Positions 55,790 through 61,797 of a DNA stretch of 64,000 nt are shown here, in pieces. The translations under genes were made by a program, and so were the position numbers. Under the pieces are notes generated by a model. That model searched no databases. It saw only the letters and a program-made list of their open reading frames with translations, and was not told where the DNA came from. Origin of the DNA: a virus (taxonomy: Duplodnaviria > Heunggongvirae > Uroviricota > Caudoviricetes); the IMG/VR virus record IMGVR_UViG_3300011337_000358. The stretch is one strand, 5' to 3'. Positions within the stretch are counted from its first letter, which is position 1, and every line of letters starts with the position of its first letter.

Positions 55790-56995
55790 ATGACCTCTGA
55801 ATCTAAACTAAACCATTGTTCCTTTTGTGGCAATCACAAAGATAAAGTTACTAAACTTATCGTAAGCGAAGATGTTGCTATTTGTAGTGACTGTATTGAA
55901 TTATGCAACCAATTAGTTATTGATGAACTTGTAACCAGTGAATCGGCTAATGTAAAAGAAAACACCATTAATGACCCTCATTTAATTAAAGAGTACCTGG
56001 ATGAGCATGTAATTGGACAAGATTCTGCTAAAACAGTACTGAGTGTGGCTATTGCTAATCATTATAAACGCATTACCTATCCACCAAAAGACTTAGAAAT
56101 TTCTAAAGGTAATGTCTTAATTATTGGGCCTACTGGATCAGGTAAAACACTATTAGCTAAAACAGTAGCAAAATACTTAAATGTACCTTTCATTGTTGCT
56201 GATGCTACTAGTTTAACTGAAGCAGGGTATGTGGGTGATGATGTTGAATCAATGATTAGTATGCTTGTTAATGCCGCAGGTGGAGATCCTAAACTAGCAG
56301 AACGTGGTATTGTGTTTGTTGATGAAATTGATAAGATTGCACGTAAGAGTGAGGGTACTAGTATTACCCGTGACGTATCAGGTGAGGGTGTTCAACAGGC
56401 GTTATTGAAATTAGTTGAAGGCACCGTGTGTCGTATTCCAGCTAGTGGCGGACGCAAACATCCCGGTGGTGATATGCTAGAAATTAATACAAAAAATATA
56501 TTGTTCATTGCAGGTGGGGCATTTGTTGGATTAAAAGAAATTATTTCTAATCGTAAAAACGGTACCAGTATTGGATTTGGGGCAAATATTAAAGAAAATA
56601 AAAAAGAAGGTGAACTAAGCCAAGTAACTCCTGACGATTTGACTAAGTTTGGTATGATTCCTGAGTTTATCGGCCGCTTTACTACTACAGTTAGCATTGG
56701 TGAATTGGGGAAAGATGAGTTAAAACAAATATTAACTTCCGTTAAAAACAATTACATCAAGCAATATCAATATCTATTAAGTATTGATGGTATTGAATTG
56801 AACTTTGAAGATGGTGCTTTGAATCAAATTGTAGATAATTGCTTGAAATTAAAGACCGGAGCACGTGGATTACATACTGAAATTGAACGTGTATTGATGC
56901 CACATATGTTTAATGTCAACAAGTATAAGGAAAATAACGTAAAAGTGATAAATATAAGTCAGGACGCAGTTATAGAACCAAAAATTATGTTATGA
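55790..56995 (+). CDS. clpX: ClpX ATP-dependent protease unfoldase subunit
   Basis: N-terminal C4 zinc-binding domain 'CSFCGN…CSDCIELC'. Walker A '[11 protein letters not shown]'. Length 401 aa. Confidence 0.9.
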
Positions 56996-57213
56996 GTATT
57001 AAAGGAAGACGAGTTATTGTACAAGACGGGAATTTTGAAAAAGCATTACGCAAATTCAAAAAGAAGATATCCGACCTGGATTTATTACAAGAAGTTCGTG
57101 ACCGTCAACAATATGTTAAACCTACTGTTAAACGCAAACTAGCAAAAAGCCAAGCTAAACGTAGATGGCAAAAATATCTACGTGACCAAAGTCTACCCAA
57201 GAAACTTTTTTAA
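56992..57213 (+). CDS. rpsU: Ribosomal protein bS21 (RpsU) homolog
   Basis: '[41 protein letters not shown]' matches E. coli S21 '[41 protein letters not shown]'. Length 73 aa. Confidence 0.85.
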
Positions 57214-57261
57214 CCTAAATATTATAATTTATTGCGTATTAGTAGTATAATAAATACATAC

Positions 57262-57313
57262 GTAGATGCCGATAATCGGGTCTACATATAGTCATCTTGC
57301 TTAATAAAGGAGA
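57262..57313 (+). promoter_or_regulatory. Candidate ROSE-like RNA thermometer in the Hsp20 5'UTR
   Basis: Nested hairpin 'GTAGATGCCGATAATCGGGTCTAC' followed by 'UUGCU' (57297-57301) positioned to pair with SD 'AGGAG' (57308-57312), with the G·G mismatch typical of ROSE elements. Confidence 0.4.
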
Positions 57314-57319
57314 AAACAA

Positions 57320-57772
57320 ATGACAAAAACTTTAACCCTTCGTTCCCTCGACATTCCGTCGCTTCATAAATTTGGTATCGGTTTCGATTCAATGTTTGAT
57401 GAATTGCACAGAATTCATTCTCAACAATCCAACACAAACTATCCCCCATATAACATAGTCCAAATTAATGAGGACGAGTATATGATTAGTGTAGCTGTAG
57501 CTGGATTTGGTCTTGATAATCTTTCAATAACAAAAGACAAAAACTTTTTGATTATTGAAGGGAAGGAATATCAATCTGATAGCGAAGAAATCATACCAAA
57601 CTATCTACACAAAGGTATTAGCAACAGAGACTTCCGTCGTGAATTCAAACTTGCAGACCACGTAGAGATAGTGGATGCAAATTTAGAATTGGGTATCCTC
57701 AACGTTCATTTAAAACGTGAAGTTCCTGAAGAACAAAAGCCCAAGTCTATTGCAATTACTTATACTAAGTGA
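57320..57772 (+). CDS. Small heat-shock protein Hsp20/alpha-crystallin family (IbpA-like)
   Basis: 'FRREFKLADHVEIVDANLELGILNVHLKRE' is the alpha-crystallin domain C-terminal block. Confidence 0.85.
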   Translation: MTKTLTLRSLDIPSLHKFGIGFDSMFDELHRIHSQQSNTNYPPYNIVQINEDEYMISVAVAGFGLDNLSITKDKNFLIIEGKEYQSDSEEIIPNYLHKGISNRDFRREFKLADHVEIVDANLELGILNVHLKREVPEEQKPKSIAITYTK

Positions 57773-57795
57773 TATAATAGAATTTCAATAAATAA

Positions 57796-57817
57796 GTGTG
57801 CGGGGTAACTCGCACAC
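57796..57817 (+). promoter_or_regulatory. Stem-loop (GTGTGCG-N8-CGCACAC) in the clpS leader, after a TGATATAAT extended -10
   Basis: 7-bp perfect inverted repeat. Confidence 0.35.
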
Positions 57818-57832
57818 AACTTAAATAAAATT

Positions 57833-58138
57833 ATGTCCAAAACTGATACTAAAGTAAAAATCAAACCTAATCTCGCTTTAAGAGAGCCGCCCTTGTTTAA
57901 AATCATTTATTTCAATGATGATGTTACAAGTCTGGAATTTGTTGTGGGAAGTTTAATTGATTATTTTAATTATAATCAGGATACTGCTACTTCTATTAGT
58001 GAAAATATTCATCATCAAGGAAGTGCTGTGGTTGCAGTACTACCTTATGAAATTGCAGAGCAAAAAGGCATCGAAGTTACACTAGAAGCTAGAAGCCAAG
58101 GTTACCCGCTTCAAGTTAAGATTGAAGCTGAAGTTTAA
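57833..58138 (+). CDS. clpS: ClpS adaptor protein
   Basis: 'PLFKIIYFNDDVTSLEFVVGSL' matches E. coli ClpS '[23 protein letters not shown]'. Confidence 0.85.
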   Translation: MSKTDTKVKIKPNLALREPPLFKIIYFNDDVTSLEFVVGSLIDYFNYNQDTATSISENIHHQGSAVVAVLPYEIAEQKGIEVTLEARSQGYPLQVKIEAEV

Positions 58139-61140: not shown

Positions 61141-61152
61141 CACTAAAATCAA

Positions 61153-61181
61153 TTGACTTTGACATAAACTTCCGTTATAAT
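61153..61181 (+). promoter_or_regulatory. Promoter TTGACT-17-TATAAT for clpP
   Basis: Hexamers. Confidence 0.6.
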
Positions 61182-61209
61182 AGTGGAAACATTTATATAA
61201 AGGAAGTTT

Positions 61210-61797
61210 ATGTCTCTAGTCCCAATGGTTCTTGAACAAACAGCAAAAGGTGAGCGTAGCTATGATATCTACAGCCGCCTATTACGTGACCGTGTTATTT
61301 TACTTGAAGGTGAAGTGCATGACCAAATGGCAAATCTTATCGTTGCCCAATTGCTTTACTTAGAAAGTGAAAGCGACAAAGATATCTCAATGTACATCAA
61401 TAGCCCAGGTGGTAGTGTGACTGCTGGTATGGCAATATATGATTGTATGCAATTTGTTAAACCTGACATTCACACTATTGTAATGGGTCAAGCCTGTTCA
61501 ATGGGGTCATTACTTGCACAAGCAGGCAGTGCAGGCAAACGATTTATGTTGCCCAATGCACGACATATGATTCACCAACCAAGTGGTGGCGCACGTGGTA
61601 TGCAAAGTGACATTGAAATCAGTTACAAAGAAATCACATACTTGAAAAAACGTCTAACTGAAATTTATGTTAAGCATAACTCAGCCGGCAAATCATACGA
61701 AGATTTTGAACGTGACATGGATCGTGATAAGTTTATGAGTGCTGAGGAAGCTTTGGCCTACGGACTTATTGACAAGATTGTTGAAAAGCGCCAGTGA
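61210..61797 (+). CDS. clpP: ClpP protease proteolytic subunit
   Basis: '[17 protein letters not shown]', catalytic Ser '[10 protein letters not shown]', His 'MIHQPSGG'. Promoter TTGACT-17-TATAAT at 61153-61181. Confidence 0.9.

Follow-up and report, generated by a model that had tools for sequence, protein, structure and literature searches.

The window analysed here is a stretch of 64,000 nt of viral DNA (Caudoviricetes; IMG/VR virus record IMGVR_UViG_3300011337_000358), and the parts of the leader and the gene described below lie on its + strand. It encodes an IbpA-type small heat-shock protein (sHSP; gene hsp20), which is directly preceded by a structured 5' leader (Table 1). A preliminary description of this DNA had proposed that a ROSE-like RNA thermometer candidate lies upstream of the gene. 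The presence of such an element is borne out by its predicted fold, by its match to the Rfam ROSE_3 model and by its conservation with compensatory changes in relatives, and we conclude that it is a real, conserved ROSE-like leader. The gene itself begins where it had been placed, with the ATG at 57320 opening a 150-aa open reading frame (ORF) that matches the Pfam HSP20 model. The Hsp20 protein, of the proteobacterial IbpA type, is 41% identical to Escherichia coli IbpA, contains YPPYN and AVAGF, and aligns its R103 with R93 of the E. coli protein.

The individual parts of the leader, namely the UUGCU motif, the AGGAG of the Shine-Dalgarno (SD) sequence separated from it by 6 nt, and the start codon, all lie exactly at the positions previously assigned to them. 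The minimum free energy (MFE) fold of the leader at 37 °C (-14.8 kcal/mol, z = -2.9) consists of two hairpins, as in the short ROSE elements of the Pseudomonas type, and of an outer helix; hairpin I begins 58 nt before the ATG (57262-57319), the median for this distance in the clade of the window being 62 nt. The GC-containing hairpin of the preliminary description is real, although its true span is 57262-57285 rather than 57265-57290. Its core, GAUGCCGA..UCGGGUC, agrees with the ROSE_3 consensus at every conserved position, and with a predicted stability of -9.3 kcal/mol at 37 °C and -4.0 kcal/mol at 60 °C it would not melt within the physiological range. In hairpin II the strand UCUU[G]CUU pairs with AAGGAGA in the register of the Rfam ROSE_3 consensus, so that an SD-occluding hairpin is indeed predicted on folding. 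UUGCU thus pairs with the SD as had been proposed, but not through a G·G mismatch, because G57299 is bulged in the MFE fold, with which the mismatched register shares just the pairs C57300-G57309 and U57301-A57308. Above C57300-G57309 the helix continues with two U-A pairs, and there is no G-C clamp. GUCA(U), on the 5' side of the outer helix, lies in non-coding sequence and is conserved throughout the window clade; in the dnaK leader of one related locus (L034) its place is taken by UAAU, pairing with AUUA(UG).

Table 1. Parts of the hsp20 leader and flanking features of the window
Feature	Position	Strand	Remarks
Hairpin I, GUAGAU-[G57268 unpaired]-CCGA-UAA-UCGG-GUCUAC	57262..57285	+	Fold and covariation
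Linker AUAUA	57286..57290	+	Unpaired in MFE fold; length and sequence vary among relatives
Outer helix, 5' arm GUCA	57291..57294	+	Pairs with UGAC of the start region (MFE fold)
Anti-SD strand UCUUGCUU with ROSE motif UUGCU (57297-57301)	57295..57302	+	G57299 unpaired
Hairpin II loop AAUA	57303..57306	+	MFE fold; variable among relatives
SD strand AAGGAGA (AGGAG 57308-57312)	57307..57313	+	Aligns with SD of the ROSE_3 consensus
Start codon AUG plus AC	57320..57324	+	UGAC (57321-57324) is the outer helix 3' arm (MFE fold)
hsp20, IbpA-type small heat-shock protein, 150 aa	57320..57772	+	Pfam HSP20, E=2e-14
Promoter-like -10 region TATAATAAATA (overlapping TATAAT and T4-late-like AATAAATA)	57246..57256	+	5 nt before hairpin I
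clpX	55790-56995		Neighbour of hsp20
Ribosomal protein S21 (bS21)	56992-57213		Neighbour of hsp20
GC-rich hairpin downstream of hsp20	57796..57817	+	-16.4 kcal/mol, z=-4.4
clpS	57833-58138		Neighbour of hsp20

In a search of the window with all 4227 Rfam families, ROSE_3 (RF02523) emerged as the top match (E = 0.033; E = 1.8e-4 in a local search). The match, at 57260-57325, covers the full model (1-69) and places the ATG of the model on that of the phage gene. Hence, the comparison with Rfam suggested in the preliminary description gave a full-length, in-register match to one of the two models named there, at a score (30.0 bits) that lies below the gathering threshold of 43, and no match to the other in the window, namely classical ROSE (RF00435). 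The window contains three copies of the bare motif TYGCT-N2-10-AGGAG where 0.98 would be expected, and three or more occurrences were seen in 16 of 200 simulations, which is not significant. The significance of the element therefore stems from the covariance-model match, the position before an IbpA-type gene, and the conservation and covariation in relatives. We also observed a weak match of the Rfam freshwater-2 RNA (RF02980) at 57243-57322 (23.4 bits; cut-off 49.9), with the 3' end of that motif, AAGGAGAAAACAAAUG, being identical to the hsp20 ribosome-binding site; it may be that this metagenomic motif derives from related phages.

The window Hsp20 has 594 confirmed relatives in IMG/VR, of which the best 80 (73-97% identity) are on viral contigs of up to 353 kb. 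A close set of 78 related viral loci with enough upstream sequence represents 52 distinct upstream regions. The leader lies directly before hsp20 in 77 of the 78 loci and in 51 of the 52 distinct regions; in the sole exception (L050) hsp20 directly follows a dnaK gene, and it is dnaK that carries the leader instead. A covariance model built from the close-relative leaders, termed R1, detects just one site in the window, with 93.5 bits, and likewise one in front of every hsp20. In the alignment of these leaders 97.4% of the cells of the paired positions are paired, as against 39-50% when the partners are slid, and 11 of the 21 pairs display changes on both sides, with none of 500 shuffles reaching the observed values. 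Because the alignment was fitted to the model, it is biased towards the structure; the slid controls and the raw sequences nevertheless lead to the same conclusion. Hairpin I displays compensatory changes in eight of its ten pairs in the close relatives and in all ten in a broader set, with swaps such as CCGA/UCGG to CCCA/UGGG to CUGA/UCAG and GUAGA/UCUAC to GUGGA/UCCAC to GUGAG/CUCAC. The anti-SD strand CUUGCUU is near-invariant across the 51 distinct leaders, with UCGCU found in L018 and L019.

Homologues of Hsp20 were recovered with tblastn in 509 cultured-phage records, all of them less than 41% identical to the window protein; more than 460 of these records are from cyanophages (organism names beginning with Synechococcus, Cyanophage or Prochlorococcus). 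We chose six cultured phages from different clades and hosts, namely Syn9, P-SSM4, Methylophilales phage Melnitz, Pelagibacter phage HTVC104P, Sinorhizobium phage Phosso and Pseudomonas phage PA5oct. The highest-scoring R1 match in each of these phages lies directly before hsp20 and includes hairpin I, U(U/C)GCU and an SD, which is AGGAG in five of them and AGGAU in HTVC104P; nothing is annotated at the leader in any of the six records. Likewise, all 62 distinct upstream regions in an unbiased sample of Syn9-type hsp20 genes possess GGUUGCCUUCGGGGACC, forming a covarying stem, together with CUCGCUU and AGGAG. In a broad alignment, changes on both sides are seen in 19 of the 21 pairs, and the U.G pair opposite the SD alternates with C-G (45 to 17 rows), the latter being formed by the cyanophage CUCGCUU. 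The support for the outer helix is moderate in this set, with 81% of the cells paired. A scan of IMG/VR with the pattern CTTGCTT..AGGAG..ATG(not A), in which hairpin I was not specified, returned, among the matches listed, dozens of divergent contigs with a GCC..GGG hairpin before the motif and an IbpA-type sHSP after it; about 25 of the 29 listed matches that also matched R1 and were translated have an IbpA-type sHSP or DnaK downstream. The single model match in the window and the presence of the motif at only one of its 16 AGGAG-ATG sites show that the leader is not a general feature of the ribosome-binding sites of the window.

Of 80 phage dnaK loci (Pfam HSP70; L407-L486), 65 likewise have the leader with the ROSE motif before the gene, so that the element is associated with chaperone genes. 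Some of the dnaK leaders have CUUACUU or CUCACUU, in which the 'bulged G' is replaced by A, and some display a third hairpin, GGGC..GCCC, between hairpins I and II, reminiscent of the multi-hairpin classical ROSE. We further noted several leaders in other contexts. In L066 (774-839; also in L069 and L074) a shorter ROSE-like leader (R1 score 39.7 bits) has nothing but a 14-aa ORF behind it, with a TTGACA-type promoter and groES-groEL coming next; this short form may be the remnant of a displaced gene or belong to a leader peptide. In L126 (1293-1364) a two-hairpin leader matching R1 (43.4 bits) without U(U/C)GCU precedes a 95-aa acidic protein with no Pfam match. In L089 (2795-2865, - strand) a two-hairpin leader with CUUGCUU (25.7 bits) precedes a 90-aa protein likewise without a Pfam match, and this ORF shares its viral contig with the hsp20 locus L015.

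Among known thermometers the phage leader is closest to the experimentally validated short ROSE-like thermometers of Pseudomonas ibpA genes, represented in Rfam by ROSE_3 (Krajewski et al. 2013; PMC3669281). The two share an architecture of two hairpins in about 60 nt, the hairpin I core, an IbpA-type gene downstream, and a U(U/C)GCU in the 3' hairpin that is imperfectly paired with the SD around an unpaired G. The window leader differs from them in being phage-encoded and in scoring 30 bits against the gathering threshold of 43; it also lacks the sigma-32 promoter and the upper G-C clamp. Furthermore, its AUG is predicted to be paired (GUCA:UGAC), whereas the start codon is open in Pseudomonas, hairpin II of the window clade is predicted to be weaker by some 4 kcal/mol (medians at 37 °C of -1.4 kcal/mol and, in Pseudomonas, -5.1 kcal/mol), and the relatives of the window place the leader on dnaK too. 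Reciprocally, R1 finds the Pseudomonas ibpA thermometers with 17-31 bits. A scan of bacterial genomes for GATGCCGA..TCGGGTC..TYGCT, which furnishes examples rather than a taxonomic census, gave at least 120 matches. Among those listed, 52 have an Hsp20 homologue downstream by a simple gene-finding rule, mostly in Pseudomonas and also in Azotobacter, Caulobacter, Shinella, Breoghania and an alphaproteobacterial metagenome-assembled genome; many of the remaining listed matches are in high-GC genomes. With the ROSE_3 model Pseudomonas and Azotobacter score 57-66 bits (P. putida 66.3, Azotobacter 56.6), the alphaproteobacterial sHSP leaders with the same hairpin I core 29-33 bits (Shinella 32.9, Breoghania 29.2), and the leaders of the phage relatives 27.1-38.2 bits in the same register (Melnitz 34.1).

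Classical ROSE elements, which belong to rhizobia and other alphaproteobacteria and whose founding work was done in Bradyrhizobium, have three or four hairpins and sigma-70-type promoters and belong to high-GC genomes. The window element, with its two hairpins, differs from them in this respect, and shares with them a position before small heat-shock genes and the pairing of U(U/C)GCU with the SD in a hairpin whose unpaired or mismatched G is critical. The sHSP leaders of Caulobacter, Shinella and Breoghania have hairpin I (GAUGCCGA..UCGGGUC) in common with the phage leader, and the Caulobacter sequence CUUGCUUGAUAAGAAGGA is close to the phage hairpin II. The lambda cIII thermometer alternates between two structures, with translation favoured at moderate temperature, and its target is a factor of the lysis-lysogeny decision. 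Like it, the window leader is a phage mRNA structure that would control access to the ribosome-binding site, here with a temperature response suggested by analogy; it is unrelated in sequence and logic, and stands before a chaperone gene. The E. coli ibpA 5' untranslated region (UTR; PMC10474464; PMC10410725) is again a ROSE-type leader on an IbpA-type gene whose Arg93 is retained as an equivalent residue in the phage protein, although it is longer (~100 nt) and has more stems. Finally, the Synechocystis hsp17 thermometer, a single short hairpin that occludes the SD (cited in PMC3669281), resembles the present case in regulating a small heat-shock gene and in coming from the cyanobacteria, the host group of many leader-bearing phages. 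Yet it lacks the ROSE motif, and the cyanophage leaders are of the proteobacterial ROSE type and not of that of the host. By its architecture and motif the window leader is of the ROSE type and closest to the Pseudomonas short form, as judged from sequence, while by the curated threshold of Rfam it is no member of the family.

A promoter-like -10 region lies shortly before hairpin I in the window, and relatives keep TATAAT or ATAAATA a few nucleotides before the hairpin (TATAAATA), some of them with TTGACA-N17-TATAAA. A -10-like hexamer ends -1 to 6 nt from hairpin I in 49 of the 51 window-clade leaders; this tally is subject to noise, since RNAfold lengthens hairpin I by A/U pairs and such hexamers are common in AT-rich DNA. 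A scan of the window with the sigma-70 consensus detected no hsp20 promoter, and TATAATAAATA is not enriched in the window. From this arrangement transcription would appear to start at about 57258-57263, at the foot of hairpin I, giving a 5' UTR of about 58-62 nt as against 61-62 nt in Pseudomonas. We considered hairpin I as a terminator of the upstream S21 gene and rejected this, given the absence of a U-tract after it and the conserved promoter-like element before it.

The thermal response was examined by nearest-neighbour modelling of the probability that all five SD bases are open, benchmarked on the Pseudomonas and E. coli leaders. Between 10 and 30 °C the predicted rise has a median of 5.3-fold in the window clade, 70-fold in the Syn9 clade and 2.7-fold in the phage dnaK leaders, with which the 28-fold rise obtained for Pseudomonas leaders by the same model may be compared. 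For individual leaders the predicted rises are 18-fold for Melnitz hsp20 (10 to 30 °C), 17-fold for Syn9 hsp20 (15 to 30 °C), 30-fold for P. putida ibpA (25 to 42 °C) and 3.6-fold for E. coli ibpA (25 to 42 °C). Hairpin II of the window clade has at 10 °C the predicted stability (-4.9 kcal/mol) that its Pseudomonas counterpart has at ~37 °C. In the window copy hairpin II together with the outer helix reaches -3.0 kcal/mol at 37 °C, and the predicted unpaired probability of the AUG climbs from 0.06 at 4 °C to 0.24 by 37 °C and 0.44 at 50 °C. In silico deletion of G57299 produces seven continuous pairs and lowers the predicted SD opening more than 10,000-fold; because it locks the SD in this manner, the conserved unpaired G can be seen as keeping the helix marginal, which is the design logic of ROSE. 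This agrees with the repression of translation by single-nucleotide deletions equivalent to the bulged G in Pseudomonas (PMC3669281). Taken together, the modelling is suggestive of a thermometer for the family as a whole and only partly so for the window copy.

These observations lead us to favour, with moderate confidence, the interpretation that 57262-57324 is the 5' leader of the hsp20 mRNA and acts as a ROSE-like translational thermosensor behind a non-heat-shock promoter, with the RNA as the sole heat-responsive layer. Transcription would probably begin a few bases before hairpin I, at a promoter of the phage or sigma-70 type and not of the sigma-32 type. By analogy with Pseudomonas, hairpin I would be a stable 5' stem that aids the folding of hairpin II or protects the mRNA. 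Hairpin II would hold the SD, with the unpaired G keeping it marginally stable, and in the window clade the outer helix GUCA:UGAC would tie up the start codon as well. At low temperature the ribosome-binding site would be mostly closed, and warming would open it gradually and allow more Hsp20 to be translated. The 'temperature-gated' Hsp20 of the preliminary description is accordingly one that we too would expect by analogy with the bacterial thermometers.

Several of our results weigh against this interpretation. No Rfam family matches anywhere in the window at gathering thresholds, and none of the phage copies scored with ROSE_3 attains 43 bits, the best reaching 38.2. Since the alphaproteobacterial sHSP leaders also score 29-33 bits, a sub-threshold score of this kind is what a relative outside the seed clade of the model would look like. 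The hexamers of a sigma-32 promoter (CTTGAA-N13-18-CNCCATAT) were not seen by eye upstream of the window hsp20. The SD helix shows almost no covariation, and is supported by conservation and analogy rather than by covariation; low variation is to be expected here, because the SD strand must also pair with the 16S rRNA. In the modelling the hairpin II core of the window copy is feeble, at -3.2 kcal/mol at 20 °C, -0.9 at 37 °C and 0 at 45 °C. There are two alternative registers, with UUG:CAA plus CUU:GAG competing at low temperature. The mean per-base unpaired probability of the SD is nearly flat at ~0.33-0.38 over 4-50 °C, and the predicted opening of the whole SD increases merely 2.4-fold from 10 to 30 °C, within a range of 3-14% open. 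Moreover, the hsp20 ribosome-binding site ranks 20th of the 46 genes of the window in opening energy, and is not unusually occluded.

This last set of predictions bears on two other explanations that accept the leader as real. The one we deem unlikely, though worthy of serious attention, is that it serves mainly as an operator for the phage Hsp20 itself, which would repress the translation of hsp20 (and dnaK) and be relieved when aggregates titrate Hsp20; the leader would then be a sensor of the protein-folding load during infection and not of temperature itself, and such a role can coexist with thermosensing. The precedent comes from E. coli, Cedecea and Vibrio, in which IbpA represses its own translation via the ibpA 5' UTR in a manner that requires Arg93, a residue noted there to be common in the IbpAs of alpha- and gammaproteobacteria, the groups in which sHSP genes are under RNA thermometers (PMC10474464). 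In keeping with this, the window Hsp20 has the Arg93 equivalent R103, the residue is present in six of the seven phage Hsp20s aligned, and E. coli IbpB, which lacks the activity, has Q. However, the Arg93-equivalent arginine is among the most conserved residues of alpha-crystallin domains. Its presence is thus weak evidence, the residue being widely conserved in sHSPs, and PA5oct has K at this position and still keeps the leader. That hsp20 and dnaK have the leader in common would fit regulation of both by one trans-acting factor. The window copy is predicted to respond only weakly to temperature, which leaves scope for a partner protein, and the UGCC..GGG core of hairpin I is conserved far beyond what a mere stem would need. 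Against this, the RNA determinants of IbpA binding are undefined, so that the leader cannot be scored as a binding site.

We regard as rather improbable the alternative that the leader is a constitutive cassette in which hairpin I acts as a stabiliser of the mRNA 5' end and partial pairing of the SD fixes the level of translation, with no meaningful response to temperature in phages that seemingly come from cool, thermally stable waters. It draws on the predicted resistance of hairpin I to melting up to 60 °C, together with the mRNA-stability role that has been suggested for its Pseudomonas counterpart (PMC3669281), on the small and nearly temperature-independent opening predicted for the window copy, on the ordinary occlusion of its ribosome-binding site for this genome and on the promoters, which are not of the heat-shock type. 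Yet the exact ROSE motif with its unpaired G is kept across clades whose Hsp20s are only ~35% identical; as removal of the G would tighten the stem, it would appear that selection keeps the helix marginal. A generic cassette also sits poorly with the predominance of the leader on chaperone genes, both in the IMG/VR scan and at the dnaK loci, and with other clades being predicted to be as responsive as the validated Pseudomonas thermometers. As for a chance resemblance arising in an AT-rich intergenic region beside a strong ribosome-binding site, the lack of enrichment of the bare motif and the score below the curated threshold would be in line with it, but we consider it effectively excluded by the full-length, in-register top match, the compensatory changes in dozens of distinct leaders and the independent recovery of the leader before divergent hsp20 genes in all six cultured phages.

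The hsp20 gene belongs to a 'proteostasis island' in the window (55790-58138) with the order clpX, S21, hsp20 and clpS. The bS21 ORF overlaps the stop codon of clpX, and 107 nt lie between its end and hsp20. S21 is involved in SD-dependent initiation, so that the phage version could influence the reading of SD-occluded leaders. Between clpX and hsp20, relatives insert dnaK (L034, L050) or groES-groEL (L066, 957-2900), and in the Pseudomonas jumbo phage PA5oct clpS directly follows hsp20. The GC-rich hairpin downstream of hsp20 is without a U-tract on the + strand and terminator-like on the - strand only. It may be the 3' end of the hsp20 transcript or a 5' hairpin of the clpS transcript, its place in the transcription unit being uncertain. 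A promoter-like sequence, TTGCAA-17-TATAAT with an upstream TG (57750-57778), overlaps the end of hsp20 and precedes this hairpin, and the clpS start has no obvious SD. Elsewhere in the window, a hairpin at 61147-61230 with a perfect stem of 13 bp (-30.4 kcal/mol, z = -5.5) buries the SD and AUG of the ORF at 61210-61797. A promoter-like site, TTGACT-N17-TATAAT, lies within its 5' arm and loop, so that transcripts from this site would miss the occluding arm while read-through transcripts would be closed. Other products encoded in the window include a family-B DNA polymerase, an ATP-dependent ligase, a GP88-like protein and a radical-SAM protein; a tRNA search of the window found none. Identification of the source as a phage is justified, and it is probably a jumbo phage. 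A nucleotide search of cultured phages yielded distant clpX matches only, indicating that it has no close cultured relative among them.

In the full-text literature outside subscription-only papers we found no report of a ROSE element or other RNA thermometer on an hsp20 gene of a phage or cyanophage. To our knowledge, lambda cIII is the one phage RNA structure generally called a thermometer, and we know of no ROSE-controlled dnaK in bacteria. A 2024 review speculates only that viral RNAs might act like bacterial thermometers (PMC10884466). The phage-borne variant of the ROSE-type leader, widespread in ecologically important phages and extended to dnaK, thus appears to be undescribed there. 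On a more speculative note, one may picture the large aquatic phages and T4-like cyanophages as having their own post-transcriptional heat-shock regulon, in which a single ROSE-like module on hsp20 and dnaK, with a possible remnant at groES-groEL, is transcribed from ordinary phage or host sigma-70 promoters independently of the host sigma-32. This module would integrate temperature, through melting of the SD, with folding load, through binding of Hsp20, and would have its stability tuned about 25 °C below that of Pseudomonas for cool-water hosts; we hold this picture, taken as a whole, to be doubtful.

The curated thresholds of Rfam miss all of the phage copies, and current annotation pipelines would not report them. 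If the proposed role is correct, these leaders would represent a bacterial cis-regulatory module that was acquired along with its gene, retained across very divergent phages and hosts (cyanobacteria, with an hsp17 thermometer of another type, among the latter) and extended to dnaK. Should they work like their Pseudomonas counterparts, temperature would directly set the supply of chaperones during infection by some of the most abundant phages of oceans and lakes, among them T4-like cyanophages, which would provide a molecular handle on how temperature shapes phage productivity.

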